32,000 nucleotides of DNA. Source: Candidatus Methylomirabilis limnetica. Its GTDB lineage: Bacteria > Methylomirabilota > Methylomirabilia > Methylomirabilales > Methylomirabilaceae. Every line of letters begins with the position of its first letter. Position 1 is the stretch's first letter. The DNA lies in contig NZ_NVQC01000022.1 of NCBI RefSeq assembly GCF_003044035.1, forward strand, positions 270,001-302,000. The letters run 5' to 3'. The notes under the pieces are model-generated. The model ran no database searches. It was not told the DNA's origin and saw only the letters and a program-made list of their open reading frames with translations. The position numbers were made by a program, and so were the translations under genes. Below are positions 15,962-31,515 of this stretch, in pieces.

Positions 15962-16125
15962 GTAACTACTCAAGGTGTTTAGGCTGAAGGCTGAAGGCTG
16001 AAGGTTCTAAATTATCTCGCAAGGCACGAGTCGAGCCATTCAAGATCTTTTCGGAGTTTTCTTTGATCACGCATGACTTACCCCTAAAAGCCTTCAGCCT
16101 TCAGCCTATCCACCTGAGTAGTTTC
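15962..16125 (-). mobile_element. IVS-like MITE, copy 1 (164 bp), with the ORF remnant on the minus strand
   Basis: Its termini are GTAACTACTCAAGGTG ... CACCTGAGTAGTTTC. Its arms are (GGCTGAA)3 and (TTCAGCC)2. It is flanked by the perfect 8-bp direct repeat TAATGCAG (15954-61 and 16126-33). The loop encodes MRDQRKLRKDLEWLDSCLAR stop. Confidence 0.75.
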
Positions 16126-16127
16126 TA

Positions 16128-16450
16128 ATGCAGGAAGAACTCCCCATGACTCACGACACATCACCGGCAGCTATCGCGATGGCTGAGCAGATTGCGGAAC
16201 TCCAGGAGCGGGTTCTGGATGATGCGCTAGGGCCTCGAGGGCACCCACGATCGTCTGAAGCGCCATGGGCCTGCCGCTGCGGAGCCCGAACGGGCTTCGC
16301 CCGGAGGGGGGGGCGCCATCAACTTCTTCGTACCGACTCCGGAGCGGTTTCGATCACGCTGTACGTAGTACGCTGCTCTAGTTGTCGCGCTGTTTTCTCG
16401 CCATTTCGCCAGCTTATCGAGTTGGCATCGCACGGCGATCGACCGGAGGA
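16128..16450 (+). pseudogene. Possible remnant of a transposase N-terminal zinc-ribbon region (ISKra4-like layout), read as an in-frame extension of the lptF ORF
   Basis: ..ELQERVLDDAL...CRCGARTGFARRGGRHQLLRTDSGAVSITLYVVRCSSCRAVFSP.. shows the C-x-C-G ... R..L.T..G ... C..C ...P architecture. This is a weak assignment made by eye. Confidence 0.3.
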
Positions 16451-16492
16451 GATCCTGAAGCATTTACGGTCGCTACCGCCTCTTCGACTCCA

Positions 16493-16527
16493 CTCAGGAC
16501 AGGCCCTTCGACCAGGCTCAGGACAGG
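16493..16527. repeat. Duplicated 11-mer CTCAGGACAGG (REP-like; gives the LRLHSGQALRPGSGQ pseudo-peptide)
   Basis: Identical 11-mers at 16493-16503 and 16517-16527. Confidence 0.5.
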
Positions 16528-16580
16528 TCTTGACTAAAGACCTCGATGACTCCAAGACCTCACCTCCACGTCGCGCCGAT

Positions 16581-17898: not shown

Positions 17899-18972
17899 AT
17901 GCGAATTCTGGATCGTTACCTTGTGAGAGAGTTTCTGGGGACGTTCGTCTTCTCGCTGGTAGTCCTCCTCGCGCTCTCCGCTATCGTTGACCTGTTCGAC
18001 CGCCTGTCCCGCTTCCTCGACGTTTCCGGTATGGTGGTTCTCCAGTACTACGTCCATAGGCTGCCATGGTTCGGATTCCAGGTCATGCCGGTGGCGGTGC
18101 TTCTCGCCGCCCTATTCAGCCTTGGGAGAATGGTTCGGCACAACGAATTACTCGCCATGAAGATGGGTCATCTAGGTTCCTTGCGCATCATAGCTCCGCT
18201 TTTGGTCCTCGGCCTCGTGGTGAGCCTTGCGGCACTGGTCCTAGGTGAGTCGATAATCCCTCAAATGAACGAACGCGCGCTGAACACGTATCGAGTCAAG
18301 GTGCAGAAGGTCTCCCCCTTTCAGCGGACCAGGGACAACGATATCTGGTACCGGGCCAAGGGTAACCGGTTTTTGCACATCTCGCTACTGGAGGTGGCAT
18401 CGGGTAACATCCATGGGCTGACCATCTTTGAACTCTCACCGGATTTCAGGCTACTGAGAAGGGTCGATGCAAAGGAGGCCCGATGGCAAGACGGGCGGTG
18501 GTGGCTTCGGGATGGCGAAATCTCCTGGACCAGGCCTGATGGGAGATATCAAGTCGATCCGTTTACGAACATTACGATTGATCTCGAAGAAACGCCCATG
18601 GATCTTGCCCAGGTCGTGCGGGAGCCTGAAGAGATGAGCTCTGCGGAGCTTCGGGAGTATATCGAGCGGCTCGCCAAAAGTGGGGTGAACTCTGTGCGGT
18701 ATCAGGTAGACCTGGCTGCAAAGAGCTCTACAGCATTCGTGAGTGTCGTGATGGCCCTCATCGGGATCGCATTCGCCCTCCGTACCGGCAAGCGAGGCGT
18801 GATGGCCTGGTCGGGCGCCTGCGTGGTGGTAGCCGTATGTTACTCGATCCTCAACTCCCTCAGTATTTCTCTCGGGCGAGGCGGCGTCCTGCCCCCGATA
18901 GTTGCGGCGTGGCTTCCCAACGCCCTCTTCACCGCTGCCGGTCTCAGCTCCGTACTCACGATCAAGAGCTAA
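17899..18972 (+). CDS. lptG: LPS export ABC transporter permease LptG, 357 aa
   Basis: MRILDRYLVREFLGTFVFSLVVLL.. is the canonical start (ATG at 17899; the track start at 17881 is an upstream TTG). It belongs to the YjgP/YjgQ family and is adjacent to lptF. Confidence 0.85.
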   Translation: MRILDRYLVREFLGTFVFSLVVLLALSAIVDLFDRLSRFLDVSGMVVLQYYVHRLPWFGFQVMPVAVLLAALFSLGRMVRHNELLAMKMGHLGSLRIIAPLLVLGLVVSLAALVLGESIIPQMNERALNTYRVKVQKVSPFQRTRDNDIWYRAKGNRFLHISLLEVASGNIHGLTIFELSPDFRLLRRVDAKEARWQDGRWWLRDGEISWTRPDGRYQVDPFTNITIDLEETPMDLAQVVREPEEMSSAELREYIERLAKSGVNSVRYQVDLAAKSSTAFVSVVMALIGIAFALRTGKRGVMAWSGACVVVAVCYSILNSLSISLGRGGVLPPIVAAWLPNALFTAAGLSSVLTIKS

Positions 18973-18973
18973 T

Positions 18974-19024
18974 AGCGATCAGCTCTCAGCTGCTGAAAGC
19001 TGATCGCTAACAGCTGAACGCTGC
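18974..19024 (+). repeat. Heptamer-periodic array (GCTGAnn type) containing an 11-bp perfect inverted repeat (AGCGATCAGCT / AGCTGATCGCT)
   Basis: 7-nt phasing of AGCT/CGCT across about 7 units, directly after the lptG stop. No T-run follows, so it is not a classical intrinsic terminator. Confidence 0.6.
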
Positions 19025-19046
19025 CCTTTATGTGGCCAATATTGCC

Positions 19047-19076
19047 TTGACCTGCAAGTCCTTTGCTGCTTATACT
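19047..19076 (+). promoter_or_regulatory. Candidate sigma70-type promoter of ahcY (TTGACC-18 nt-TATACT)
   Basis: Hexamers read directly from the sequence. It implies a roughly 105-nt leader. Confidence 0.45.
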
Positions 19077-19185
19077 TCCCCGTCAGAAGCAATACCTTAT
19101 CAAGCAAATGAAATTCCCCTCACCGCGTTCCGCGCGGCCGGTGAGGGCTAAAAAAGGGGCGCCTCGCACTCTTTATAAAAAGGAA

Positions 19186-20634
19186 ATGAACATGCCGACG
19201 TTAGCAGAAAAAAATCTATCCTCTTCGCCTGATTTCAAGGTGGCGGATTTGTCCTTGGCCGATTTTGGTCGCAAAGAAATTGACATTGCTGAAAAAGAAA
19301 TGCCCGGCCTGATGGCGGTGCGTGAGAAGTACGGGAAATTGAAATCTCTCAAAGGCGTCCGTGTAACCGGTTCGCTGCATATGACCATTCAAACAGCCGT
19401 GTTGATCGAAACCCTGGTCGACCTGGGTGCGGATGTTCGCTGGGCCTCTTGCAATATCTTTTCAACCCAAGACCATGCAGCGGCAGCCATTGCCGTGGCT
19501 GGAGTTCCCGTATTCGCCTGGAAAGGTGAAACCTTGGAAGAATATTGGGACTGTACTTTTAAAGCTCTGGTTCACCCTGGCAAAAACGGTGAGGTCCTGG
19601 GACCCCAGCTCATTGTAGATGATGGTGGCGATGCCACCTTACTCATTCATTGGGGAGTCAAGGCCGAAAAAGACGCGTCTTTCCTGGATCGAAAACCGGA
19701 GAACGAAGAGGAAGGCTGTATTCTCAACTTGTTGAAAAACACTTTGAAGTCCTATCCGGGTATTTGGACCCGCATAAGCAAAGACTGGAAAGGGGTTTCG
19801 GAGGAAACCACCACCGGCGTCCATCGTTTATACCAGATGATGGAAAAAGGGGAACTTTTGGTGCCGGCCATTAATGTGAACGACAGTGTCACCAAGAGCA
19901 AGTTCGATAATTTGTACGGATGCCGAGAATCATTGGCCGATGGCATCAAACGCGCCACCGATGTGATGATCGCAGGTAAAGTGGTGGTCGTGGCCGGCTA
20001 CGGAGATGTGGGCAAGGGTTGCGCGCATAGTATGCGCAGTTACGGGGCCCGCGTTATCGTCACTGAGATTGATCCCATCAACGCCCTACAAGCGGCGATG
20101 GAGGGCTTTGAAGTCACCGTTATGGAAGACGCCGCCAAGATGGGGAATATTTTTGTAACCGCTACCGGTAACGTGGATGTCATTACCGCGGCTCACATGG
20201 TGACGATGAAAGGGGAAAGTATCATTTGCAACATCGGGCATTTCGACAGCGAAATCGATGTGGCCGGGTTGAAATCCCTTCCGGGTGTGCAACACGTCAA
20301 CATCAAGCCCCAGGTGGATAAATATGTCCTTCCAAATGGGAATAACCTCTATCTTTTAGCAGAAGGACGTCTTGTCAATCTGGGTTGTGCCACGGGTCAT
20401 CCCAGTTTCGTCATGTCGAATTCATTTACTAACCAAACCTTGGCCCAAATCGACCTTTGGAGCAACCCGCGGCCCATAGGTGTTTACACCTTACCTAAAA
20501 AGCTGGATGAGGAAGTCGCTCGACTGCATTTGGAAAAACTGGGAATCAAACTAACCCGGTTGAGTCCCAAGCAGGCTAAATATATCGGAATCTCTCCGGA
20601 TGGTCCCTATAAGCCAGATCATTATCGTTATTAA
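19186..20634 (+). CDS. ahcY: Adenosylhomocysteinase (S-adenosyl-L-homocysteine hydrolase)
   Basis: ..[35 protein letters not shown].., the NAD site [12 protein letters not shown], and the C-terminus [12 protein letters not shown]. The track start at 19063 is too early. Real start is ATG 19186 (MNMPT) or ATG 19192 behind AGGAA. Confidence 0.9.
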
Positions 20635-20706
20635 GCGGCAATTGGATTGCCGCTAGGCTTCTAGCCCTTTGAATCCTATCTCTTTTCGGGGATAGGATTT
20701 TTTGTT
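20635..20706 (+). terminator. Tandem hairpins after ahcY; the second is a rho-independent terminator (AATCCTATC-loop-GATAGGATT followed by TTTTTGTT)
   Basis: GCGGCAATtggATTGCCGC at 20635-20653. A 9-bp stem at 20672-20699 is followed by a T-run. Confidence 0.7.
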
Positions 20707-21199
20707 GGTTTTAGATCAAGCCCTCGTGAGGGATTACAGATCGAAGCTATTCAAAAGTGAGCCGTCTGGCTCCCCTCGACCCGTCGCCGGCGTCCAAACT
20801 CTGTCCATGCTCGGTCCATACATGGTTCAGCAGTGCTTCTTTTGAGGATGCGTTCCGATCAAATCCACCACCCATTCCGATCGATGATCGCCGGTTGCCT
20901 CGCGAGCAGGATGCCGGTCCAAGACGCCTCGATTTAGGGTAGTGAACCAAGCGTGGGGGGAGACAGGGCACTGTGACCAATGCAGGAGACTCAAGATTAC
21001 GGGGGTGTAATCTACACCCTACACGGTGGCAGGCGCGGGGGATTCCCGCAAGCGCCGTTCACCTACGCTCTGGCGCCTAACGGCGTGATCTGCCGCGAGT
21101 GTAACGAGCTAGCGCGCCAAGTTGTTGGGCTGTAATTCTTGGTCTCATCCTATTCGTTCCCAGAGACCGCTGACGTCTGCACCGTTGCAATACAAATGG

Positions 21200-22429
21200 T
21201 TAGTTGATGAGAAACAGTTTAATGGTGTATTCATAAATAATTGCCGCAACGATAGAGGCACAGATGCCGAATATGAATTGCATCATGATCGATTTCTCTT
21301 TCTCTTGTTTCTCCATCTGCCTATTCCCTTTCGCTGTCAACGCGAGAATGCTTTGCATTCGAAACACTCTTAGGTACAGTGCGGTCAACATATAGGCAAC
21401 CAGATAGAGAAGTACGAACCTAAAGTATGAGTACGCCCAATGTATATTCTGCATTGCCTGTATCTGTTGAATCATCGCCTTCGTATTGTAGGTGAGCTTT
21501 TCTGATTTTTCGTCTCGGTCATAGTAGCCAGACACCCACTTGTCAATGACTCCATGGTACTTTGAATTAAAGCGTCCTGCTTCCTGGAGCCCCGAGATAA
21601 TGGCTCTCGGCTCATACTTCAAATCGCGAAGCAGAAAGAACTGAAGAAGGAGACTTGGATCTCGGTCACTCCTGTTGTCTATCAATACTTCTGCAACATC
21701 AAAAATAAACTCATCTCGCACTTTTAGCGGATTGAGCATGTCCTTTTTTTGGATAAGCATGTAAATGCCTCCAACAATAATAAATAGGATGCAGGCAACG
21801 GCAATAGTATCCAAGATGCCAAAACTCTTCAAAGATCGTAGGGTCTTGTACGCGAGTGAGTAGCGAATTACTATTTTGCCTATGTGCTCTTCAAACAGTC
21901 GCAATACTTCTGCGGCCCAGACCTGGTTTGTATGTTCAACTCTCACCGTAATAGAACCCACGCGCGAAAACAATCTAGCCGTTTCAAAAAAGACCGATAC
22001 TTTTTGTTGTTGAACAGTGTTCATGTCTGGCGTCTTAAACACAAAATTCCAGCACATGTCGAACGATTGCACCCCTATGTCCCTGTGCTCGCTATATTTT
22101 TCAATCGCTTCAAATGTATTGATTGTTCTGTTGGTGTTGTCATCATAACGTATGACAGCTGTTACTAACGACGTCATTATGAACTGTTCTTTAGCTATTT
22201 TTTGTTCCAGCAGATGGTGAAACTGCAGCAAGTCCTCGATTCGTACAATGAAATCATTATCGAATGTCTTACTCAAGGTTTCTCTGGCACCAAGAAACCC
22301 AAAAAGAAACTCCGCGAACTTCCCTTTTTTCAATATCAGCGTTACATCGCTATCCCCGTCTTGCCGTAATGTTGCTATCTCCGGATCGGTAGCCTCCCCT
22401 TTAGGCGTTATGCCGCTTTGTTGCGCCAT
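21200..22429 (-). CDS. Orphan low-GC membrane protein, 409 aa (about 200-aa soluble N-domain, one central TM, two C-terminal TMs)
   Basis: A clean ORF with a strong SD (GGAGGAActcATG). About 40-43% GC in sampled stretches against more than 60% in neighbouring genes. TM segments: ILDTIAVACILFIIVGGIYMLI, FRFVLLYLVAYMLTALYL and IMMQFIFGICASIVAAIIY. No family was recognised. Confidence 0.75.
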   Translation of the reverse strand: MAQQSGITPKGEATDPEIATLRQDGDSDVTLILKKGKFAEFLFGFLGARETLSKTFDNDFIVRIEDLLQFHHLLEQKIAKEQFIMTSLVTAVIRYDDNTNRTINTFEAIEKYSEHRDIGVQSFDMCWNFVFKTPDMNTVQQQKVSVFFETARLFSRVGSITVRVEHTNQVWAAEVLRLFEEHIGKIVIRYSLAYKTLRSLKSFGILDTIAVACILFIIVGGIYMLIQKKDMLNPLKVRDEFIFDVAEVLIDNRSDRDPSLLLQFFLLRDLKYEPRAIISGLQEAGRFNSKYHGVIDKWVSGYYDRDEKSEKLTYNTKAMIQQIQAMQNIHWAYSYFRFVLLYLVAYMLTALYLRVFRMQSILALTAKGNRQMEKQEKEKSIMMQFIFGICASIVAAIIYEYTIKLFLIN

Positions 22430-22448
22430 GAGTTCCTCCTAGTTAGAA

Positions 22449-22673
22449 CTACCTAATCCGGCGCAAGACTTGACCAGATTGCAATATAATCTGGCTCGCA
22501 TCCCGCCGGAAGAGCCCCCGTAACCTGTTCGCCACGCGGTCCAGAGAATTGGCGGACGTCTTCTGAAAACAGTATGGCCCTTCAGGAGTCATGATGCCCC
22601 AGAGGGCCATAGCGGTCTTCGCCTTCGGCGTGATGCCGGTTCCGGCTAGGCGCAGGTTCCCACCACTTGCCAT
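22449..22673 (-). CDS. Small hypothetical protein, 74 aa, 17 nt upstream of the orphan membrane-protein gene
   Basis: The ATG at 22673 is preceded by GAGGAG with 6-nt spacing. The track start (TTG at 22712) would lie at the predicted transcription start. The GC content is host-like. No family was recognised. Confidence 0.5.
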   Translation of the reverse strand: MASGGNLRLAGTGITPKAKTAMALWGIMTPEGPYCFQKTSANSLDRVANRLRGLFRRDASQIILQSGQVLRRIR

Positions 22674-22719
22674 GTCTGTCTCCTCACCCTTGACAAAAGA
22701 GGGTAGAACCAAGTAGCCA

Positions 22720-22749
22720 ACTGTAGCATGTAGCTTACTTGGGTGTCAA
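22720..22749 (-). promoter_or_regulatory. Candidate promoter of the two-gene module (TTGACA-18 nt-TACAGT on the minus strand)
   Basis: Hexamers read directly from the sequence (plus-strand ACTGTA 22720-25 and TGTCAA 22744-49). Confidence 0.4.
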
Positions 22750-23164
22750 AGGAAGCATGAGCCGTCTTGGGGGCCAACCCGCGGAGTTGGCAGTGCAGGT
22801 TACAACCACAAACCTACACCACGATCGGAACGCCTGGCCGAGCTCAATCGGAAGAGGTGGCCGGTTTACGACCGGAATGGGTGGCGCAGTGGGCGTACGC
22901 ATCTTGTCGAGGCAGAGGTTGACGAGCCGTACGAACTACATGGCCAGAACAGGAGATGCTTGCACGTATGGTAGCGCGTGCGGGCGCGGATGTCTGGCTC
23001 GGAAGGCGGGGTGAAGCGACTAGATTGACGCGGCTCACAGGCTCGAACGGAGGAAAGCCTTGGAACAGTGCAGGCACGCATCCTCGACCTCGACGCCGAG
23101 CGCGACCTTGGGGAGTTTGCCATGCACGGCCTGGCGGGCGGAGTCAGCGCAGCTCTCAGGTGCG

Positions 23165-23839
23165 TTACTTCACGATCTCCAGCAGTTCCACCTCGAAGAC
23201 CAGCGTGGCGCCCGGCTTGATTTTCGGGGGCGACCCCCGGACGCCGTAGGCCGCGTCGGCAGGGCAGACCAGCTTGGCCTTACCGCCGACCTTCATGGTG
23301 GCAACGCCTTCGGTCCAGCACTTGATCACGCCGTTGAGCGGGAAGGTGGCCGGTTGCCCACGCTGCACGGAGCTGTCGAAGACGGTGCCGTCGATCAGGG
23401 TGCCAGTGTAGTGCACCTTCACCGTGTCGCTGGCCGCGGGCGAGGGTCCGGTGCCAGGCTTGAGCGTGGTGACGATCACGCCCGAGGCCGTCTTGGTCAC
23501 CCCCTTCTCGGCGGCGGCCTTGTCGAGGAACGACTGGCCCTGCTTCTTCTCGACGGCAGCGGTGGCGGCCTGACGCGACGCCTGCAACTCCTGGACCTTG
23601 CTAGTGTACGCGAGCAGCTCGACCTTCCGCGTCCGATTCAGGACCCCGTCGGCGAGACCTGACTTCACCAACTCCAGCTCGGCCTCGCTGAGATTGAACG
23701 AGCCGAGACTCTGGCTGAGCGCGAGCCCTAGGGCGTAAAATGTCTTCTGCTCCTCAGTCTTCAGCTCCTGGCCCCTGACGACGCCGGCCGCGCCGACGGT
23801 CATCAGGAGGGCGACGATGCACGCGACGATTCGATGCAT
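23165..23839 (-). CDS. Periplasmic FKBP-type peptidyl-prolyl cis-trans isomerase (FkpA/FklB-like), 224 aa
   Basis: Signal peptide MHRIVACIVALLMTVGAAG. FKBP domain VKVHYTGTLIDGTVFDSS....FPLNGVIKCWTEG...MKVGGKAKLVCPADAAYG....IKPGATLVFEVELLEI. Confidence 0.85.
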   Translation of the reverse strand: MHRIVACIVALLMTVGAAGVVRGQELKTEEQKTFYALGLALSQSLGSFNLSEAELELVKSGLADGVLNRTRKVELLAYTSKVQELQASRQAATAAVEKKQGQSFLDKAAAEKGVTKTASGVIVTTLKPGTGPSPAASDTVKVHYTGTLIDGTVFDSSVQRGQPATFPLNGVIKCWTEGVATMKVGGKAKLVCPADAAYGVRGSPPKIKPGATLVFEVELLEIVK

Positions 23840-23846
23840 GAGGGAA

Positions 23847-25004
23847 TTATGCTCCCAGTCTGCCGGCCTCTTTTTTTAGATCCTCAGCCTTATCGGTCCG
23901 CTCCCACGTGAAATCAGGTTCTGTGCGACCGAAATGGCCATAGGCCGCAGTCTGCTTATAAATTGGGCGTCGAAGATCAAGAGCCTTGATCATCCCGGCC
24001 GGGGTCAACTCAAAGTGGGGACGGACCATTTTCATCAACTCTTCATCCGGGATCATCCCTGTCCCCTTGGTGTCCACCAACACCGACACTGGGTCGGCGA
24101 TGCCGATCGCGTAGGCCAGTTGAATCTCGCACTTTTGGGCCAAGCCGGCCGCTACGAAATTCTTCGCGATATACCTGGCATTGTACGACGCAGATCGATC
24201 CACCTTCGTCGGGTCCTTACCAGAGAAGGCGCCGCCTCCGTGACTCCCGACTCCGCCATAGGTGTCCGCGATCAGCTTCCGGCCGGTCAGCCCAGTATCG
24301 CCGTGGGGCCCGCCGATCACAAAGCGGCCGGTTGGATTGATGTGGTAGGTAATCAGGTCCAAGTCCACCAACTCCCTGGGGAGGACCGGGAGGATCACCT
24401 GCTCAATGACGTCTTCTCGGATCTGCTTTAACTGGACCTCCGCGCTATGCTGAGTGGAGATAACCACAGTATCGATGCGATGCGGCTTCCCATCGACGTA
24501 TTCGACCGTCACCTGCGATTTGCCATCCGGTCGAAGGTAATCCAAGATCCCCGTACGACGGACCTCTGCCAGGCGCCTGCAGAGCTTGTGGGCCATCATA
24601 ATCGGAATCGGCATCAACTCAGGGGTCTCATCGCTGGCATACCCGAACATCAATCCCTGATCGCCCGCCCCCTGGACGTCAACTCCCAGCGCGATATCGG
24701 GAGACTGCTCCTGAATTGCGCTGATGACGCCGCAGGTCTCGTAATCAAAGCCGTATTTAGCCCTCGTATAGCCAATGTCCCGGATCGTCTCGCGGACTAC
24801 CTTTGGGATGTCCACATAACACTTGGTGGAAATCTCCCCGGCCACAAAGGCCAAGCCAGTCGTGACCAGCGTTTCGCAGGCCACGCGGCCATAGGGGTCC
24901 TGCGCGAAGATGGCGTCAAGCACGGCATCAGAGATCTGGTCGGCAATTTTATCAGGGTGACCCTCAGTCACCGATTCCGACGTGAACAGATAGTGCTTGG
25001 GCAT
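23847..25004 (-). CDS. metK: S-adenosylmethionine synthetase, 385 aa
   Basis: [31 protein letters not shown].., [12 protein letters not shown] and [16 protein letters not shown]. The start was moved to the ATG at 25004 behind GGAGGAGG. The track start at 25061 reads through the heptamer array. Confidence 0.92.
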
Positions 25005-25028
25005 AAATCGACCCTCCTCCCCTTCCAA

Positions 25029-25056
25029 GTTTTGAGTTTTGAGTTTCGGGTTTTGA
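25029..25056. repeat. Heptamer array (GTTTTGA)x4, one unit degenerate, in the metK 5-prime leader
   Basis: GTTTTGA GTTTTGA GTTTCGG GTTTTGA read directly from the sequence. Confidence 0.7.
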
Positions 25057-25101
25057 GTCACATTCTACGGAGAACTCGAAGCATAGGTGTTCAGATCGGT
25101 C

Positions 25102-25129
25102 ACTGTAACACGCCTCTCCTGCTTGTCAA
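25102..25129 (-). promoter_or_regulatory. Candidate metK promoter (TTGACA-16 nt-TACAGT on the minus strand)
   Basis: Plus-strand ACTGTA at 25102-07 and TGTCAA at 25124-29. It lies about 95 nt upstream of the metK ATG. Confidence 0.35.
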
Positions 25130-25153
25130 GAAAAAGCCTCTGCCATGCCGCCC

Positions 25154-25696
25154 CTACTTCGGAGTCGACCCTCGCCTTTCGATGAACTCCTCCCATCGGC
25201 CCTGGGCCTTCAGGATCAGATCGATCACCTCCCGGACCGCGCCACGGCCACCGGCCTGCGTGGTCACATAGGCGACCCTTGCTCTCACCTCCAGGGCGGC
25301 ATCAGCCGGCGCCGCAGAGAGGCCGACCCGACCGAGCACGAGGAGGTCGTTCAGATCGTCACCGACGTATGCCGCCGCCTCATCGGTCAGACCGTACCGC
25401 TGAAGGAGCATCTCGTAGACTTCGAGCTTGTTCAGGATACCCTGGTGGATCTCAGGAATGCCCAACTCCTTCGCGCGGTGGGTAACCGCCCCAGACACAC
25501 GTCCCGTCAGGATCGCAGTCAGCAACCCCGCTCGTTGGGCCATGCGAAGACCCAGGCCGTCTCTCACGAAGAAAGCCTCGGTCTCCACCCCTGCCGCGTT
25601 GTAGAAGACCTGTCCGTCGGTAAGCACGCCATCGACATCCATGATAAGCAGACGAATCGCCTTTGCCTTTTCCTGGAGCCTCAGATCAATAGACAT
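25154..25696 (-). CDS. kdsC: 3-deoxy-D-manno-octulosonate 8-phosphate phosphatase KdsC (HAD-IIIA)
   Basis: LLIMDVDGVLTDG....RDGLG......G....ILTGR.......R..ELGI......K......GDDLND. The second ATG (25696) has better SD spacing (AAGGA-6 nt). The alternative start is 25702. Confidence 0.85.
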   Translation of the reverse strand: MSIDLRLQEKAKAIRLLIMDVDGVLTDGQVFYNAAGVETEAFFVRDGLGLRMAQRAGLLTAILTGRVSGAVTHRAKELGIPEIHQGILNKLEVYEMLLQRYGLTDEAAAYVGDDLNDLLVLGRVGLSAAPADAALEVRARVAYVTTQAGGRGAVREVIDLILKAQGRWEEFIERRGSTPK

Positions 25697-25715
25697 GGGC
25701 ATTCCTTAGAAAATA

Positions 25716-25750
25716 GCGTTCAGCTTTCAGCGGTCAGCTATCGGCTCTTC
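25716..25750. repeat. Heptamer array (GCnnTCA type, 5 units) immediately upstream of kdsC
   Basis: GCGTTCA GCTTTCA GCGGTCA GCTATCG GCTCTTC. On the coding strand it reads as GCTGAnn units. Confidence 0.65.
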
Positions 25751-25817
25751 TGGTACGTCCCCTGTTTTGTCTAAGCGTCATCGCATCTATTGCGTCTCTG
25801 GGTTCTGAGCCGTAGCC

Positions 25818-25847
25818 GTAGGTCGGGTTAGCGTAGCGTAACCCGAC
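25818..25847. repeat. REP-like hairpin family A, copy 3 (inverted orientation)
   Basis: GTAGGTCGGGTTAgcgtagcgTAACCCGAC. Confidence 0.7.
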
Positions 25848-25881
25848 AACGCTCGGCTGAGCGCCGATTGCCGATCGCTTC

Positions 25882-26049
25882 GTAACTACTCAGGTGTTTA
25901 GGCTGTAGGCTGAAGGCTGTTAGTCGTTGCGCACGGACTGAATCAAGGCGCACTTCATCGGCCAGTTCAAACGCTCTGAGCTTGGCATGATCTCGCATGG
26001 CGCGTTCCTACAGTCTAAAAGCCTACAGTCTATCTACCTGAGTAGTTAC
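25882..26049 (-). mobile_element. IVS-like MITE, copy 2 (168 bp), with the ORF remnant on the minus strand
   Basis: Perfect 14-nt termini GTAACTACTCAGGT / ACCTGAGTAGTTAC. Arms are GGCTGTAGGCTGAAGGCTG and CTACAGTCTAAAAGCCTACAGTC. It is flanked by the perfect 8-bp repeat ATCGCTTC (25874-81 and 26050-57). The loop encodes MRDHAKLRAFELADEV.., the canonical N-terminus of a four-helix-bundle protein. Confidence 0.8.
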
Positions 26050-26056
26050 ATCGCTT

Positions 26057-27016
26057 CTATACCACCCCGGCCCTCAGGAGGTCGTGCAGGTGGATGACCC
26101 CCTCTGGTCTCCCTTCGGGATCTACGATCAGCAGGGAGGTGATCGCGTGCCGCTCCATGACCTCCAGCGCCCTGGCCGCGAGGGCATCCTTGTCGATGGT
26201 CTTGGGGTGAGACGTCATGCAGTCTCTGACCTGCCGCTGCAACAGATCGATACCTTCCTGGAGCATCCGTCTTAGGTCGCCATCGGTGATGATTCCGGTG
26301 AGGATCCCGGCCTCGTCCACCACAGCGGTCATTCCGAACTGCTTTCGCGAAATCTCGGTAAGCGCGTCACGCATGAGCGTACCCTGCGCGATGACAGGAA
26401 GCTGCTCACCAACGTGCATGAGGTCCTGCACCCGCCATAACAGCCGCCGTCCCAAGCTACCGGCCGGATGCAAGAGCACAAAGTCTGCCTCGGTGAAACC
26501 GCGCTGCTCGAGCAGAACTACGGCAAGAGCATCGCCCATCGCCAGGGCTGCGGTGGTGCTAGCGGTTGGAGCCAAGGCCAGCGGGCAGGCTTCTTTCGCC
26601 ACGCTCACATCGATCGCAACGTCGCACTGTCCGGCAAGGGTGGAGGTGGAATCGCCAACCAGCGCGATCAGCATGAGGCCTAGCCGTTTGATCGCGGGGA
26701 GCAAACCTACGATTTCATCCGTCTCGCCGCTGTTCGAGATCGCGATGACAACATCGCCACGGACCAGCATCCCCAAGTCGCCATGCCCCCCCTCAGCGGG
26801 ATGGAGGAAGAACGCGGGGGTTCCGGTGCTGGCCATGGTGGAGGCAATCTTCTGAGCAATCGATCCGGACTTACCCATGCCGGTTAGTACGACCCGGCCC
26901 CGGCAGTCCCGGAGGATCTCGACAGCCCGGTCGAACCGCTCATCTAGCTTCGGGATCAAGGCCAGGATCGCCTCGGCCTCAATCTGCAGCACTTGTCGCC
27001 CTCGATCGGCAATCAT
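26057..27016 (-). CDS. kdsD: Arabinose-5-phosphate isomerase KdsD (KpsF/GutQ; SIS plus tandem CBS domains), 319 aa
   Basis: GRVVLTGMGKSG.IA.KIA.T..STGTPAFF.HP.E..HGDLG, with C-terminal CBS pairs. Confidence 0.9.
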   Translation of the reverse strand: MIADRGRQVLQIEAEAILALIPKLDERFDRAVEILRDCRGRVVLTGMGKSGSIAQKIASTMASTGTPAFFLHPAEGGHGDLGMLVRGDVVIAISNSGETDEIVGLLPAIKRLGLMLIALVGDSTSTLAGQCDVAIDVSVAKEACPLALAPTASTTAALAMGDALAVVLLEQRGFTEADFVLLHPAGSLGRRLLWRVQDLMHVGEQLPVIAQGTLMRDALTEISRKQFGMTAVVDEAGILTGIITDGDLRRMLQEGIDLLQRQVRDCMTSHPKTIDKDALAARALEVMERHAITSLLIVDPEGRPEGVIHLHDLLRAGVV

Positions 27017-27163
27017 GGAATTTCGGTCCGCTCTAACAGAGGTCCGAGCATCCGATCCACGACAGGGATCACCTCGTCAAGCCCGATCAACTGTATTGTG
27101 CTCACAAGGATCCTCCTCGGCTCCCCAATCCCCAAGGCAGCCGCCACCGCTCCCCGTCCGGTG

Positions 27164-28453
27164 TCATCCGGATATCCACGAGATCCAGCCACCATTCCCA
27201 GCCTTCTGCCTCTCTTGTTCCGCATCGACGCTCACCGCTAAGGCCATCAGCACCCAGAAAAGGTGGGCCATGCCTCCTGCGAAGATGTGATCAAACAGGT
27301 TGCTGACGATTACCCCTACAACGACCATCCCCAGGCCGAGTAGAACCGCCTGTCCGAATCCATCGGAAGCCTTGGCCATTCTCCCCATTGTTGCCCTGAG
27401 CGCGGCGGAAAAGATCCACAATAGCAGAATCAGACCCGGGAACCCGGTCCCAAGAGCAGCCTCAATATACAGATTATGAGGGTGGTTGGCTTCTTTTAAT
27501 TCCGGCGCATCCTCATAGACCATGGCCATAGCCTTTCCGCCGTATCCTATCCCCATCAGCGGATGCTTCGAAAGCTCCTGGACGGCCAGTCCAGAGGTCT
27601 TGAGTCGAGCCACCAAAGTGTAAGGATTCAGCGTATCAGCGCTCGGGCTCAACGAAAGAGTGCTACTTCTTGATGCGAGGAGCAGCAGGCCTACCAACCC
27701 CACGAGGATGGTCCCCCCAACCAGGATCAGGTATAGCCGCCTTCGCCCAGCCCACCCATATACAAACAGCTCGGCCAGGAGGGCCACCCATGCTCCCCTC
27801 GTGTACGTGAGAAAAAGCGCAACACATGAAAGCACACACGTCATGCGAAGGAACAGCCTGGCCCACCGATCTTGCTGCACCATTGTAAGGCACAGCAGAA
27901 TCGGAATGGTCAAAATCAGATAGGTGCTCAGCCAATGGAAATCCGGGGTCAACGAGTTGGCTCTCACTGCCCTGTGGGCTACACTCCCCTGCTGAATCAG
28001 GAAAAACTTGAGGATACCGTAGCTGCTGACCACGAACGTGGTGAGCACGATGGCAGAGAGCAGCCTTCGCACCGATTGCCTATCCCGCACCTGATTTACG
28101 ACGAGATAGAAAATGAGTACGCTCACTATGAGCTTCAGCAACTCTCCCAGGCTATACAACAGATGAGCGGCCGTGATGAGGGTAAAAGCGATCCAGGCGA
28201 TGTAGGCCGCGAGCGGCACATCCAGTGAGGTCCTCCGCAGGCTAAAATCCCTTGCAACGAGCATGTGTAAGACCCAGGCAACAGCCAGACCGGCGAGGAG
28301 GGCGCCCTTCAAGGGCCGCAGTAAGGCCGACGGCATCAGGAAGATCAGTAACACGAGGCCGTATCGAAGTGCGATCGCTGAGTACGCCAGATACCGATCC
28401 CTCCACTCGAAATGTTTTCCTCCCGATACCTCCCACATCTCTTCCTTGCTCAT
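27164..28453 (-). CDS. O-antigen ligase/polymerase family (Wzy_C) membrane protein, 429 aa
   Basis: About 10-12 TM segments, with the TYTRGAWVALLAE loop motif typical of the O-antigen ligase family. It lies within the KDO/LPS cluster. Confidence 0.78.
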   Translation of the reverse strand: MSKEEMWEVSGGKHFEWRDRYLAYSAIALRYGLVLLIFLMPSALLRPLKGALLAGLAVAWVLHMLVARDFSLRRTSLDVPLAAYIAWIAFTLITAAHLLYSLGELLKLIVSVLIFYLVVNQVRDRQSVRRLLSAIVLTTFVVSSYGILKFFLIQQGSVAHRAVRANSLTPDFHWLSTYLILTIPILLCLTMVQQDRWARLFLRMTCVLSCVALFLTYTRGAWVALLAELFVYGWAGRRRLYLILVGGTILVGLVGLLLLASRSSTLSLSPSADTLNPYTLVARLKTSGLAVQELSKHPLMGIGYGGKAMAMVYEDAPELKEANHPHNLYIEAALGTGFPGLILLLWIFSAALRATMGRMAKASDGFGQAVLLGLGMVVVGVIVSNLFDHIFAGGMAHLFWVLMALAVSVDAEQERQKAGNGGWISWISG

Positions 28454-28509
28454 ATAAGATCCGCCATCGTTACCTCAGGCCCGAGCAAGCTGAGTGTTGT
28501 ACAATCGAC

Positions 28510-28717
28510 GTAACTACTCAGGTAGATAGGCTGAAGGCTGAAGGCTTTTAGGGGTAAGTCATGCGTGATCATACAAAACTCCGAGAAGATCTTGAATCTA
28601 CTGGGGGTTCATTCCCCGCGGATTGCCGCGGGGTAGTTCATTGGCTCGATTCGTGCCTTGCGAGATAATTTAGAACCTTCAGTCTTCAGTCTTCAGCCTA
28701 AACACCTGAGTAGTTAC
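28510..28717 (+). mobile_element. IVS-like MITE, copy 3 (208 bp), with the ORF remnant on the plus strand and a nested 44-nt REP insertion
   Basis: Perfect termini GTAACTACTCAGGT / ACCTGAGTAGTTAC. Arms are (GGCTGAA)2 and (TTCAGTC)2TTCAGCC. It is flanked by the perfect 8-bp repeat CAATCGAC (28502-09 and 28718-25). The loop is collinear with copy 1 apart from the insertion. Confidence 0.8.
28607..28640. repeat. REP family D hairpin (CCCCGCGGattgCCGCGGGG) nested inside MITE copy 3
   Basis: Absent from the otherwise collinear copy 1. The reverse complement matches 2723-2755 at about 30 of 33 nt. GTTCATT appears on both sides of the insert. Confidence 0.65.
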
Positions 28718-30517
28718 CAATCGACAATAGACCCCACCCTGCGCCATCAGCTCCGCGTGCGTCCCTTGCTCGACACAGCACCCACCGTCCAGTACCAGAA
28801 TCTTGTCGGCTCGAATCACGGTAGAAAGCCGGTGCGCAATCACAAAGGTGGTCCGATTCTGCATCAGCCGATCCAGCGCCTCCTGGACCAGGCGCTCCGA
28901 CTCCGCATCAAGGGCCGACGTGGCTTCATCCAAGATCAGGATGGGCGGGTTCTTCAGGATGGCCCTCGCGATGGCGATCCGTTGTTTCTCTCCACCTGAT
29001 AGACGCACCCCCCGTTCGCCAATCCTGGTCTCGTACTGCGCCGGGAGCGCCTGAATGAACTCCTCAGCGTTGGCGATCCTGGCTGCCTCCACGACTAGAC
29101 CTGGATCCACGTCACGCTGCCCATAGGCGATATTATTAAAAATCGTGTCATCGAATAAGATCGTCTCCTGGGTTACGATCCCCATCTGCGCGCGCAACGA
29201 CGAAAGGGTCGCCAGTGTGATATCGACCCCATCGATGGCGATGAGCCCCTCTGTCGGATCGTAGAAGCGCGGGATGAGGTTGACCATGGTGCTCTTACCG
29301 GTCCCGCTGCTGCCGACGACCGCCACGATCTCACCAAGCTTGGCCCCGAAACTGATGCCGTGCAGTACAGTCCGGTCGGGGTCATAGGCGAAGGAGACGT
29401 TATGGAATCGAACCCCTTCCTGCATCCGTGGAAGCGTCACAGCATCGGATCGCTCCACCAGATCAGAACGGAGGTCCATGAGCTCGAAGACCCGTACGGC
29501 GCCTGCCATTCCGCGCTGAATGTTGTTATTGATCTGGCTGATTCGCTTGACGGGTTGATAGAGGGAGGTCAGTGCCCCAAGGAAAGCCATGAACGCTCCA
29601 GGGGTCAAGCTTTTGGAGAGCACGAGATAGCCGCCGACCCAGATCGCAACAACAATGCCCACGGATCCGAGGACCTCAAGAACCGGCGAGGTAAGCGCGT
29701 CAACCTTGACGATGCGTATGACGGCCTTGAAGACTCGCTCGCTGGCGTGCCGATACCGTCGCCGCTCATACTCTTCCATGCCAAAGGCCTTGACGATCCG
29801 AACCCCGGAAATAGTTTCCTGCAGGATCGTATTCAGCTCGGCGCGCCCCTCTTGGACCAGTGTGCCTCTGCGACGGATCTTGGAACCAAACTTTACAATC
29901 GGCAGGATCGCCACCGGTAAGACGAGCAACGAAAGGAGAGCGAGCTGCCACTTGATCAGAAACAGCAGCACGATGAGCCCGATAATGTTGAACGGCTCCC
30001 TGAGAGCGTTACGGAAGAGCTCGGTCGACGCGTCCCCAAGGCTTTCTACGTCAGAGTTGAGGCGGGACATAATCTCGCCTGTTGAGCGACGAGTGAAAAA
30101 GCCAAGGGACAGCACGTGCAGATGCGCATACAGACTGTTTCGAATGTCTCGCTGGATCCCTTCGGCCACGTATCGCAGTTGCAGTTGCTGGATGTAGAGA
30201 AGTACGCCTTTGGCCAAAAAGACGAGGAAGAGGGCCCCTCCGATAAAGGTGAGGATATTGATTCGATGAGCCTGCAGGAGCGTCTGAAGCTGGACCAGCC
30301 GCTGTCCAAGCACGGCCCTGATCGGATCCGGAAGGCTAATCCCTGCCACACCGCCCTCTGCGGCGAAAAGACCGTCGAAGATCGGCTGGAGTGAACCGAT
30401 GGAGACCGCATTGAGTATGGCGATGAGGACAAGGGAGGCGATAGCAAGGATGACCCGTGCCCGGTAGGGGTAGGCGTACCGGAGCACGCGAAGGAATTGT
30501 TGTAGGGGTGTTTGCAT
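28679..30517 (-). CDS. msbA: Lipid A export ABC transporter permease/ATPase, MsbA-like, 612 aa
   Basis: Six-TM domain followed by an NBD: Walker A GSSGTGKST, signature LSGGEKQR, Walker B ILILDEATSALD. The last 12 codons and the stop lie inside MITE copy 3. Confidence 0.88.
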   Translation of the reverse strand: MQTPLQQFLRVLRYAYPYRARVILAIASLVLIAILNAVSIGSLQPIFDGLFAAEGGVAGISLPDPIRAVLGQRLVQLQTLLQAHRINILTFIGGALFLVFLAKGVLLYIQQLQLRYVAEGIQRDIRNSLYAHLHVLSLGFFTRRSTGEIMSRLNSDVESLGDASTELFRNALREPFNIIGLIVLLFLIKWQLALLSLLVLPVAILPIVKFGSKIRRRGTLVQEGRAELNTILQETISGVRIVKAFGMEEYERRRYRHASERVFKAVIRIVKVDALTSPVLEVLGSVGIVVAIWVGGYLVLSKSLTPGAFMAFLGALTSLYQPVKRISQINNNIQRGMAGAVRVFELMDLRSDLVERSDAVTLPRMQEGVRFHNVSFAYDPDRTVLHGISFGAKLGEIVAVVGSSGTGKSTMVNLIPRFYDPTEGLIAIDGVDITLATLSSLRAQMGIVTQETILFDDTIFNNIAYGQRDVDPGLVVEAARIANAEEFIQALPAQYETRIGERGVRLSGGEKQRIAIARAILKNPPILILDEATSALDAESERLVQEALDRLMQNRTTFVIAHRLSTVIRADKILVLDGGCCVEQGTHAELMAQGGVYCRLVTTQVFRLKTED

Positions 30518-30525
30518 CTGGAGAA

Positions 30526-30567
30526 CAGCCTTCAGCTATCAGCGGTCAGCTTTTAGCTTCTGAACTG
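30526..30567. repeat. Heptamer array (CAGCnnT type, about 6 units) spanning the kdsA stop and the kdsA-msbA gap
   Basis: CAGCCTT CAGCTAT CAGCGGT CAGCTTT TAGCTTC TGAACTG. It encodes the KdsA tail ..VQKLKADR stop. Confidence 0.65.
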
Positions 30568-31408
30568 ATGGCTGGTTTATATACGGCGCTACTACCTGCT
30601 GAACCTCTAGCAACTGGGTTAGAAGTTCCGGAAGTGCGTCAAGTTGGAGCATGTTGGGGCCGTCGCTGGGCGCATTGGCAGGGTCGGGATGGACCTCCAT
30701 GAAGAGCCCGTCGACCCCTGCCGCTACAGCGGCTCGCGCAATGTAGGGAATAAATTGAGACTGCCCTGAAGAGGCATCGCCCGCACCGCCAGGTAGTTGC
30801 AAGCTGTGGGTGACATCGAACAGGACGGGGTAGCCGAAGCTGCGCATGACCGGGAGCGAACGGATGTCTACCACCAGGTTGTTATAGCCGAAGCTGCTTC
30901 CCCGTTCTGTCAGCACGATCGCCTCCGAGCCGGCCGATTTGAGCTTCTCGACGATATTACCTGCATCCCATGGTGACAGGAATTGTCCCTTCTTGACATT
31001 GACCGGCTTACCGGACCTCGCAGCAGCCAGGAGGAGGTCAGTCTGACGACACAAGAAGGCCGGGATCTGAAGAATATCCAGCACCTCCGCCGCAGCAGAT
31101 ACCTGATTCACGTCGTGGACATCGGAGATGACAGGGACGCCCAGCCTCGCCTTCACACGCTCCAGAATGCGAAGCCCCTCCTCCAAGCCCGGGCCGCGAA
31201 ATGAACGGCCTGACGACCGATTGGCCTTATCGTAGGAGGCCTTGAGGATGAAGGGAACCCGGCACGCTTCACATACTACCTTGATCGCCTCGCCAATCCT
31301 GAGCAGGTGATCCTCGCTCTCGATGACGCATGGACCAGCCACTAGGAGAAGCGGCGCTCCGCCACCAAGCGTAAGTTCGCCGATCCGTACCTGTTTTGTG
31401 AGTGCCAT
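30539..31408 (-). CDS. kdsA: 3-deoxy-8-phosphooctulonate synthase (KDO-8-P synthase), 289 aa
   Basis: ..[12 protein letters not shown]......I......C......[26 protein letters not shown]...G.PV.SDVH.. and ..[11 protein letters not shown]. Confidence 0.9.
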
Positions 31409-31409
31409 T

Positions 31410-31468
31410 GGGTTTAGGGTTTAGGGTTTAGGGTTTAGGGTTTAGGGTTTAGGGTTTAGGGTTTAGGG
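31410..31468. repeat. Perfect tandem array (GGGTTTA)x8 plus GGG, the plant-type telomere repeat unit, directly abutting the kdsA start codon
   Basis: Counted unit by unit (31410-31465 plus GGG). On the coding (minus) strand it reads (CCCTAAA)n. Confidence 0.9.
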
Positions 31469-31480
31469 AGATCCTTCTAG

Positions 31481-31515
31481 ACCCTTTACCCTCTACCCTT
31501 TACCCTAGACCCTGC
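31481..31515. repeat. Degenerate heptamer array (ACCCTnn)x5 overlapping the pyrG stop; a partial inverted partner of the GGGTTTA array
   Basis: ACCCTTT ACCCTCT ACCCTTT ACCCTAG ACCCTGC. On the coding strand it gives (AGGGTnn)5. Confidence 0.8.

Follow-up and report, generated by a model that had tools for sequence, protein, structure and literature searches.

What are the tandem heptanucleotide arrays that stand between the genes for lipopolysaccharide (LPS) synthesis and the methyl cycle in Candidatus Methylomirabilis limnetica, and from what do they derive? Heptamer tandem repeats have been catalogued since 1990 in cyanobacteria, Xanthomonas, Beggiatoaceae and other bacteria, and their origin and role are still disputed. 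The 32,000-nucleotide stretch analysed here (contig NZ_NVQC01000022.1, positions 270,001 to 302,000; hereafter the window) carries lptF, lptG, ahcY, an FKBP isomerase gene, metK, kdsC, kdsD, an O-antigen-ligase-like gene, msbA, kdsA and pyrG, an order that agrees with a preliminary description of the same DNA, in which five heptamer arrays and the arms of miniature inverted-repeat transposable elements (MITEs) had been noted. We consider it likely that these period-7 arrays are the stem-forming arms of small cassettes, each built as an array, an interior and the reverse-complement array, and that the interior, in close relatives, encodes a four-helix-bundle (4HB) protein of about 120 residues (PF05635, the '23S rRNA intervening-sequence protein' family, bAvd-like). 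The 4HB gene is lost from every copy in the window; arm-only hairpins would remain between pyrG and kdsA, between kdsA and msbA and downstream of lptG, a pair of arms with a non-coding interior between kdsD and kdsC, and one probable solo arm in the metK leader.

The arrays are present far beyond chance. Detection used Tandem Repeats Finder (TRF) and a self-match scan at lag p (21-nt windows with at least 66% matches, or at least 80% in a strict setting), with dinucleotide-type shuffles as controls, and together the two methods recovered all five arrays and the MITE arms. TRF returned period-7 arrays at 25028-25058 (4.4 copies), 25715-25738 (3.4 copies), 31477-31513 (5.3 copies) and 31410-31468 (GGGTTTA, 8.4 copies, 100% matches), together with all six MITE arms (ranges given: 15981-16004, 16089-16107, 25899-25920, 28528-28546 and 28677-28696). 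TRF alone does not report the arrays at 18974-19024 and 30526-30567, because their unit flips to its reverse complement at the centre and the phase shifts; the self-match scan picks up both, as 18963-19027 and 30523-30562. At the 66% setting the window holds 13 period-7 arrays versus 0.85 in shuffles, and at the strict setting four versus 0.05, where besides only period 14, a multiple of 7, is non-zero. Period 7 is the sole enriched non-coding tandem period in the window: at 66%, periods 4, 8, 10 and 13 give no arrays, periods 5 and 11 give two to four, and the six to eight arrays at multiples of 3 are due to codon signal. The excess over other periods holds also in 158 kb of DNA from the Methylomirabilis lineage, sampled around a single operon and not from a whole genome (the window, 9.4 kb past its right end, five syntenic relative loci and five contigs of Methylomirabilis sp. 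bin48), with 32 period-7 arrays versus 0.2 in shuffles and at most one for any other period from 4 to 12. That the arrays fill most gaps is a fair statement, since five of the nine gaps of at least 20 nt within 18974-31515 hold a free array and one more holds a MITE only. All arrays are intergenic or lie on the first or last codons of genes, with a single exception inside an open reading frame (ORF; GGGGATC x2 at 3571-3604), and since they recur in independent assemblies they are not assembly artefacts.

Comparison with relatives, defined as contigs carrying KdsA homologues at 83-97% identity, places 4HB cassettes at orthologous sites: their gaps hold intact 4HB genes between matching arrays, which bears out the relation to intervening-sequence (IVS)-type elements proposed in the preliminary description. 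NCBI lists the nearest named KdsA homologues (93-94% identical) as Candidatus Methylomirabilis sp., and more distant ones as NC10 or Methylomirabilota. In relative L129, whose kdsA is 93% identical in DNA and whose KdsA is 97% identical in protein, the gap between kdsA and msbA reads CAGCCAT CAGCTGT TAGCGGT CAGCAGC, followed by an intact 119-aa PF05635 gene, a second array (GAAGCTA AAAGCTG ACCGCTG ACAGCTG ACCGCTG) and the msbA start; in the predicted fold of the full cassette the two arrays pair with each other and enclose the gene (z -4.6). Relative L127 has an L129-like arrangement of arms and PF05635 gene (Pfam E 1e-28), the gene being frameshifted. The window has at this place CAGCCAT CAG and five AnnGCTG units (predicted fold -19.2 kcal/mol, z -2.5), which is the L129 sequence minus everything between CCATCAG and TTCAGAAGC.

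The 4HB protein of L129 ends in VQKLKADR*, identical to the tail of the window KdsA. In the window the array encodes this tail and the stop codon, all KdsA residues past profile position 273 being array-coded, and it ends 5 nt before the msbA ATG. Residues L115 and R119 of the VQKLKADR-bearing tail are invariant in an alignment of three 4HB proteins that are 42-45% identical, which marks the tail codons as part of the 4HB gene and not as a hairpin read by accident. Conservation of these 4HB codons in the remnant favours loss of the gene at this site.

At the gap between pyrG and kdsA a second relative, L131 (GCA_003104975.1), carries GGGGTAT AGGGCTT AGGGTAT GGGGTAT AGGGCTT, a 132-aa PF05635 gene and the kdsA start, the tail of its 4HB protein, ..SPRSPNPKPQTPNPPK*, being coded by CCCCAAA x4. 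The window contains both L131 arm types with a mere 10-nt loop between them: in the sense direction AGGGTCT AGGGTAA AGGGTAG AGGGTAA AGGGTCT, the loop, and CCCTAAA x8 (predicted fold -47.6 kcal/mol, z -3.05). The pyrG stop codon (31505-31507) falls in the first AGGGTCT unit, so that, as had been proposed, arrays supply terminal codons of both KdsA and PyrG; the right arm ends 1 nt upstream of the kdsA ATG (31408), a gene without a Shine-Dalgarno sequence. Relatives L127, L128, L129 and L005 have divergent AGGGTnn / nnACCCT pairs here, the version in L005, a strain-level relative with identical KdsA, being CTAAACCT x3, and in L126 the pair is gone together with the kdsA ATG. The L126 genes pyrG and kdsA overlap by 4 nt (9990-10010), and its annotated kdsA start is none of ATG, GTG or TTG.

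Because intact 4HB genes lie between matching arrays in these gaps of relatives, at least two of the window arrays are arm-only remnants. The states form a deletion series, from arms with gene, through arms with a few terminal codons, to arms only, and the KdsA C-termini vary accordingly: across the genus the tail is absent, SEEGLG, 11 residues, 16 residues or EQSAISNQPSAKGCRLTAES (range 0-20 residues).

Most of the window arrays are inverted pairs of (unit)n followed by (reverse-complement unit)n, and are predicted to form long bulged hairpins with regularly spaced small internal loops (Table 1); the z-scores of the predicted folds are -3.05, -4.8, -3.85, -3.89 and -2.5. After lptG the hairpin (predicted -33.2 kcal/mol, z -4.8) has no U tract and sits upstream of an ahcY promoter-like site (19047-19076). 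The kdsC-leader arm stops some 20 nt short of the kdsC ATG and matches the kdsA-msbA right arm at 28 of 34 positions; its predicted pairing with the weak left arm next to MITE2 (z -3.89) encloses about 100 nt of non-coding interior, including a GTCGGGTTA..TAACCCGAC palindrome. A palindrome at 25815-25848, GTAGGTCGGGTTAGCGTAGCGTAACCCGAC, is conserved at the same place in L128 and L129, occurs also in Methylomirabilis sp. bin48 (L072), and resembles a second dispersed repeat family.

The metK leader array, between the metK promoter and the Shine-Dalgarno sequence and about 25 nt from the start codon, is unusually unstructured (predicted fold z +1.87) and has no partner arm. Alone among the window arrays it looks like a solo arm, probably a right one, whose left counterpart would survive as no more than 1.5 decayed units near 25075-25087; its unit type forms the right arm in L001 (4248-4296) and in L041. 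The 404-aa metK ORF is a spurious extension through this array, as suspected, the real start being at 25004, and the promoter (25129-25102; TTGACA, 16 nt, TACAGT) is conserved in relatives. The 75-90-nt metK leader (24995-25101) is replaced by a GC-rich structured leader in L128 (16880-17000) and L129 (9790-9890). Rfam identified no riboswitch in the window, metK leader included.

Only the pyrG-kdsA pair among the window arrays has G3 tracts, spaced 7 nt apart, with nine on the + strand (31410-31468) and five on the - strand (31477-31514). Both its arrays, AGGGTnn x5 and GGGTTTA x8, match the G3N4 quadruplex pattern, and its predicted hairpin would compete with the possible quadruplex. The mismatch-free GGGTTTA x8.4 is also the plant-type telomere repeat (TTTAGGG), and together with AGGGTnn x5 it gives quadruplex potential on both strands.

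Table 1. Heptamer arrays and MITEs of the window, array pairs at the GT4 glycosyltransferase site next to it, and array units at 4HB genes of Nostocales plasmids.
Feature	Position	Strand	Description
pyrG-kdsA left (upstream) arm	31477..31514	-	AGGGTnn x5 sense; TRF, sequence, fold
pyrG-kdsA right (downstream) arm	31409..31468	-	CCCTAAA x8.4 sense, GGGTTTA on +; TRF 100%
kdsA-msbA array	30523..30567	-	sense CAGCCAT CAG / TTCAGAAGCTA AAAGCTG ACCGCTG ATAGCTG AAGGCTG
post-lptG array	18974..19024	+	directly after lptG stop; palindromic CAGCnnT x3, AnnGCTG x4; sequence, scan, fold
kdsC-leader right arm	25711..25749	-	sense GATAGCT GACCGCT GAAAGCT GAACGCT; TRF, sequence
kdsD-kdsC weak left arm	25853..25878	-	sense CGGCAAT CGGCGCT CAGCCGA; adjoins MITE2; pairs with 25711-25749
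metK-leader array	25026..25058	-	sense CTCAAAA CCCGAAA CTCAAAA CTCAAAA; TRF; between metK promoter and Shine-Dalgarno sequence
MITE1	15962..16125	-	terminal repeat GTAACTACTCAAGGTG, GGCTGAA x3 arms; target duplication TAATGCAG at 15954-15961, 16126-16133
MITE2	25882..26046	-	MITE1-type terminal repeat, GGCTGTA/GGCTGAA arms; target duplication ATCGCTTC at 25874-25881, 26047-26054
MITE3	28510..28717	+ (antisense to operon)	MITE1/2 family; target duplication CAATCGAC at 28502-28509, 28718-28725
GT4 hot spot, L001	4200-4299 (9 kb past window right end)		GTTTCGA/CCCGAAA
GT4 hot spot, L126	4590-4690		GTTCAAT/CCTTCAG
GT4 hot spot, L128	4460-4555		GTTCAAT/TTGAACC
GT4 hot spot, L131	4015-4061		CCCCTCA only
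Nostoc punctiforme plasmid 4HB			upstream CAGGAGT / downstream ACTCCTG
Calothrix brevissima plasmid 4HB			upstream AGGGTGT / downstream ACACCCT
Nostoc edaphicum plasmid 4HB			upstream GGGAGTA / downstream CTCCCTA
Trichormus variabilis plasmid 4HB			upstream TCAGAAT / downstream TTCTGAA

The association of 4HB genes with heptamer arrays extends across phyla. A scan with a 4HB alignment yielded 80 metagenomic loci, 41-68% identical to the query, and a period-7 array is adjacent to the gene at 46 of them. The sequence within 200 nt of a 4HB gene (34.6 kb) contains 88 period-7 and 30 period-8 arrays and at most four of each other period, whereas the remaining 251 kb contains 36 and 20; for period 7 this corresponds to 2.5 versus 0.14 arrays per kb, an 18-fold concentration that is in part a contrast between intergenic and coding DNA. 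The complementarity of the arms is independent of that contrast: among the 24 loci with an array on each side, 22 have an upstream unit that is reverse-complementary to the downstream one with at most one mismatch, compared with 5.8% of mismatched locus pairs. Duplex energies had implausibly large absolute values, in mismatched controls too, and only the own-versus-mismatched contrast was used. The units are specific to the locus (GGAGACA/TGTCTCC, GAGTGGT/ACCACTC, GGGGACT/AGTCCCC, AACAGAG/CTCTGAT, CAGCCAT/GGCTGAT, AGGGTTT/AAACCCT).

Purine-rich arrays make up 33 of the 41 on the upstream side and pyrimidine-rich ones 38 of the 47 on the downstream side, and the 4HB gene is co-oriented with its upstream neighbour in 40 of 50 cases and with its downstream neighbour in 42 of 53 (about 80%). 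The GCTGAnn-type arrays had been described as reading in the sense orientation of the adjacent genes, a view that arose because only the right half of a palindrome had been read; they are the right arm of the inverted pair CAGCnnT/AnnGCTG, although the polarity itself is real, as the co-orientation and the differing purine content of the arms attest.

A tblastn search of PLSDB placed the 4HB gene on 32 plasmids, mostly of heterocystous cyanobacteria. Period-7 arrays stand at the gene in all six Nostocales plasmid regions examined, as complementary pairs in four, and arm-only pairs occur on these plasmids too. The closest solved structure to the 4HB protein is that of XCC0516 (PDB 2GSC), and in X. 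campestris and X. citri a 4HB gene about 85% identical to XCC0516 lies between accB and accC (L224 1429-1872 and L227 1488-1932), preceded by GGGAATC GGGAGTG GAGAATC GGGAATC and followed by CCCATTC CCCATTC TCGACTC CCTATTC. None of 20 array-flanked cassettes tested sits in an rRNA gene. The gene lists of L127, L129, L131, L224 and L227 contain no reverse transcriptase such as accompanies the Avd-like gene of a diversity-generating retroelement, template/variable repeats not having been searched there. Two metagenomic 4HB cassettes with CAGCCAT/GGCTGAT arms (L153 1346-1704 and L143 1540-1641) directly adjoin transfer-messenger RNA genes, and a GGGGACT/AGTCCCC cassette in Treponema (L204 2870-3480) lies inside an apparent leucyl-tRNA synthetase coding sequence, before FTGDGYSINSG.

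The three MITEs of the window are related to these cassettes in another way. They share GTAACTACTCAGGTG termini, GGCTGAA-type arms and 8-bp target duplications, and in their interiors the first 16 codons of a 4HB protein of L109 type survive (codons matched by eye to L109): the interior of MITE1 joins the opening codons of a 4HB gene to its last ones (MRDQRKL..KDLEWLDSCLAR*), and that of MITE2 begins MRDHAKLRAFELADEV versus VRDHTKLRAFGLADEV in the full-length 440-bp element of L109. By their sequence, the three read as internally deleted 4HB elements between terminal inverted repeats. The free arrays have neither a terminal inverted repeat nor a target duplication; their parents are cassettes without terminal inverted repeats (array, 4HB gene, array), of which the GTAACTACTCAGGT MITE family is a sister form. 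The earlier suggestion that the arrays are footprints or solo arms is thus largely right, in that 4HB genes lie between like arrays in relatives, but the MITE family is not the parent and only the metK leader array is solo-like.

The arrays turn over between relatives. At equivalent gaps they are present, absent or built of another unit in relatives whose flanking genes are 79-95% identical: the metK- and kdsC-leader arrays are absent from L128 and L129, a left-arm version CAGCAAT CAGCGCT CAGCCGA at kdsD-kdsC is conserved in both, and L129 has a new AGGGTnn/ACCCTnn pair after metK. Just beyond the window, a GT4 glycosyltransferase gene carries in-frame array pairs at one site with a different unit in each of four relatives, the protein having 407 aa with an array pair and 371 aa without. 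Among strains, array stability is the rule. Six assemblies with identical MetK have identical metK- and kdsC-leader arrays, and at strain level only the pyrG-kdsA pair differs, in one strain (L005). With no copy-number change in six assemblies, the arrays do not behave as contingency loci, and phase variation was rejected.

Were the arrays cassette arms, as we favour, they would grow, shrink and homogenise through replication slippage in 7-nt steps, and hairpin-templated correction would keep them complementary. In polycistronic transcripts the arms would fold into long bulged intercistronic hairpins, which may influence how the mRNA is processed, how stable its 3' ends are and how accessible the next start codon is (being cut, protecting, masking or exposing), for example at kdsA. 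We infer that the arrays are largely selfish or neutral remnants and not dedicated regulators.

Several observations weigh against a cassette origin for all of the window arrays. A hidden Markov model built from 80 4HB proteins detected no 4HB coding remnant among all six-frame fragments of the window, and the link for the lptG, kdsC and metK arrays is therefore made through shared units and architecture, without an orthologous cassette. Arrays outnumber 4HB genes everywhere sampled. In the gene tree, ((window, L129), L126), the window and L126 have an arm-only junction at kdsA-msbA and L129 and L127 a gene-bearing one, such that either loss or gain needs two events, or recombination, and parsimony leaves the direction unsettled. 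An unrelated 230-nt repeat interrupts the lptG hairpin of L129 exactly at the apex, and the RNA-level roles sketched above derive from predicted folds. Much of this would suit an origin in which the arrays came first and the gene second. The arrays would then be self-propagating or host-kept intergenic hairpins, akin to repetitive extragenic palindromic (REP) sequences and the hairpins formed by REP pairs (REPINs), with the 4HB gene as loop cargo or as a trans-acting maintenance factor, in the way that the gene for a REP-associated tyrosine transposase (RAYT) stands between REPINs of its own kind, and the window arrays would be seeds or independent copies instead of footprints. The repeat at the L129 hairpin apex, the non-4HB interior enclosed by the kdsD-kdsC arms and the tree, on which a gain is equally parsimonious, fit this order of events, as does the surplus of arm-only pairs over 4HB genes (in L131 four pairs and one gene in 21 kb, and Nostoc plasmids alike). 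The 4HB-flanking unit moreover recurs in the same replicon (L228 43209 and 48882/48934; L229 22341), and in Xanthomonas it is the abundant GGGAATC repeat of the genome (PMC4692102). We nevertheless judge an arrays-first origin unlikely: the window KdsA tail reuses the conserved codons of the 4HB C-terminal helix, with its invariant L115 and R119, which is hard to obtain without a former 4HB gene; the MITE interiors are plainly deletion derivatives; and the 4HB protein belongs to a family without known catalytic activity.

Two further explanations dispense with the cassette. Ordinary long simple-sequence repeats could arise by polymerase slippage, the likeness to MITE and 4HB arms being coincidental; heptanucleotide repeats are the commonest long simple-sequence class in many bacteria according to work cited in PMC4679880, the perfect GGGTTTA x8.4 resembles a recent expansion, and L005 shows change at the level of the unit in a strain-level relative. 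Slippage alone, however, yields no adjacent reverse-complementary arrays, and accounts neither for the 18-fold concentration beside one gene family nor for identical 4HB codons in a remnant, so that we regard it as very improbable. Somewhat less remote, if still improbable, is that the arrays are dedicated regulators of the LPS/methyl-cycle operon, as regulator-binding leader repeats (proposed for TAACTGA), G-quadruplex switches, phase-variation tracts or terminators. The starts of kdsA, msbA, kdsC and metK each follow an array at a distance of 1-25 nt, kdsA lacks a Shine-Dalgarno sequence, the pyrG-kdsA arrays fit both the G3N4 pattern and the position rule of GGGNATC repeats, and the metK array is unusually unstructured. 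Against such a role, the arrays are not conserved (those of metK and kdsC are missing from L128 and L129, the pyrG-kdsA pair from L126) and their units vary; copy number does not vary in the six assemblies, which argues against phase variation; and no array is found among the 15 terminator-like sites that a hairpin-plus-T-run scan returned for the window. Intrinsic termination was rejected on that ground, as none of the arrays fits a hairpin with a T run, and an Rfam gathering scan of the window matched zero families, hence no rRNA.

How do the arrays compare with known heptamer repeats? They are, as the preliminary description held, similar in form to the short tandemly repeated repetitive (STRR) sequences of heterocystous cyanobacteria, whose units include CCCCAGT, TTGGTCA and CAACAGT: both consist of tandem 7-nt units that are dispersed, mostly intergenic and of several families per genome, and 4HB genes on Nostoc, Calothrix and Trichormus plasmids are flanked by heptamer arrays. 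The STRR1 unit CCCCAGT, equivalent to GGGGACT, makes up the arms of the Treponema cassette L204. The window differs in its host, a member of NC10 (Methylomirabilis) and not a heterocystous cyanobacterium, and in its units (CAGCnnT/AnnGCTG, AGGGTnn/CCCTAAA and CTCAAAA). In a limited literature search we found no description of STRRs as inverted pairs or as tied to a gene.

Rehm et al. (2015; PMC4692102) described quadruplex-forming GGGNATC and GGGGA(C/T)T heptamers in Xanthomonas and Nostoc, GGGAATC being abundant in Xanthomonas. Their repeats are over-represented between co-oriented ORFs, where they occupy the coding strand if a stop lies at most 50 bp before them and the non-coding strand if a start lies at most 50 bp after them. 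Close relatives differ in repeat length and sequence, and some copies are inverted; the study found no association with mobile elements and proposed no origin (PMC4692102). The pyrG-kdsA pair obeys this placement rule, and an XCC0516-type 4HB gene of Xanthomonas sits between arrays of this kind. The arrays described here differ in that they flank or descend from a 4HB gene, and of the unit types in the window a single one is G-rich. TAACTGA direct repeats occur in Beggiatoaceae, Cyanobacteria and Bacteroidetes in two to six or more copies, mostly a few nt before starts (MacGregor 2015; PMC4679880), and share with our arrays the position of heptamer direct repeats close upstream of starts and a patchy phylogenetic distribution; there, however, one unit serves the whole genome, with almost no inverted copies and no reported link to a gene family, whereas the window has other units, mostly in inverted pairs. 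As in the long simple sequence repeats with 5-11-nt units of Mrazek (2007, as cited in PMC4679880), the tandem runs exceed the expectation from composition.

Other resemblances are to mobile or palindromic elements. The cassettes of relatives resemble 23S rRNA IVSs, in which a PF05635 ORF is enclosed by inverted repeats able to form a long stem, yet they lie outside rRNA, and the window copies have no ORF. With REP sequences, REPINs and REP-associated tyrosine transposases (RAYTs) they share short, dispersed, genome-specific intergenic palindromes within operons and a small gene flanked by inverted repeat copies; the arms here are, however, 7-nt tandem arrays and not a fixed 20-40-nt palindrome, and no Y1 (RAYT) transposase gene was noted among the 20 window ORFs scanned, no targeted search having been made. 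The three window MITEs are typical in their terminal inverted repeats, 8-bp duplications, length (164-208 bp), lack of a transposase and many copies across phyla, from which the free arrays differ in having neither terminal inverted repeats nor target duplications.

Heptamer repeats and PF05635 ORFs between inverted repeats are thus each known, and we could not find their connection reported: a limited search of the literature returned no statement of heptamer arrays as arms of PF05635 cassettes. The earlier remark that no equivalent tied to IVS-type elements had been described accordingly stands within that search, but heptamer repeats themselves are known well beyond cyanobacteria (PMC4679880, PMC4692102).

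The window and its relatives join the heptamer repeats to the 4HB family, as arms of gene-bearing cassettes that persist as hairpins once the gene is lost. To our knowledge this '23S rRNA IVS protein' family, which is abundant and has solved structures, has no known function outside diversity-generating retroelements. The cassette link would provide a concrete origin for one class of repeat, and may account for long-known, unexplained ones. It would explain why repeats cover the final codons of a gene and the start region of the gene that follows, why nearby C- and N-terminal annotations are unreliable, and why in-frame repeats occur inside genes. A broader proposal, which we advance tentatively and think more doubtful than not, is that inverted heptamer arrays are a general signature of widespread minimal cassettes whose sole gene is the Avd-like 4HB, that the classical heptamers (Nostocales STRRs, Xanthomonas GGGAATC and perhaps Beggiatoaceae TAACTGA) are their arms or descendants, and that the 4HB protein acts in trans on the arrays. 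It would then bind the arrays or help to copy, spread or homogenise them in the manner of RAYTs and REPINs and, if this holds, the orphan family would gain a function.

The MITEs show some features of their own. MITE2 (predicted fold z -4.57) is 93% identical to copies in Methylomirabilis sp. bin48, and its site is empty in L128 and L129. The MITE3 site is empty in L129; the msbA stop codon (28679) lies inside MITE3 (28679-28717 region), and about the last 12 msbA codons are therefore MITE-derived, MsbA having 612 aa in the window and 608 aa in relatives without the insertion. MITE3 also has an extra internal hairpin (28593-28645) in which GGGGGTTCATTCCCCGCGGATTGCCGCGGGGTAGTTCATTGG is a piece of the roughly 230-nt repeat; L129 has three copies of this repeat (at about 11400-11560, 13180-13290 and 13480-13700), one being that in the lptG 3' hairpin apex.

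More than 120 contigs carry the terminus ACTACTCAGGTNNNTAGGCTG, with Desulfobacterota, Nitrospirota, Methylomirabilota, Brocadiaceae, Elusimicrobia and Bacteroidales among the groups represented. Two to four RRCTGWW heptamers always follow it (GGCTGAA type behind GTAACTACTCAGGT). Outside the MITEs, period 7 is dominant in the 835 kb of these contigs, with 47 arrays versus at most 12 for any other period. Of the 51 paired elements, which measure 82-207 bp, none bears a transposase; no autonomous partner was found among 120 loci, and the sole far-apart pair of terminal repeats (L045, 3.5 kb) encloses PIN- and HD-domain genes and no transposase. An ORF at 16128-16620 was considered as a MITE transposase and rejected, its NCBIfam ISH6 match being without Pfam support. 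The GTAA terminus and 8-bp duplication are reminiscent of IS66. The 16128-16620 ORF runs into lptF as a 164-aa N-terminal extension, of which residues 18-111 match the ISH6 model (E 1.8e-11), and may be a transposase fragment or a zinc-ribbon domain.

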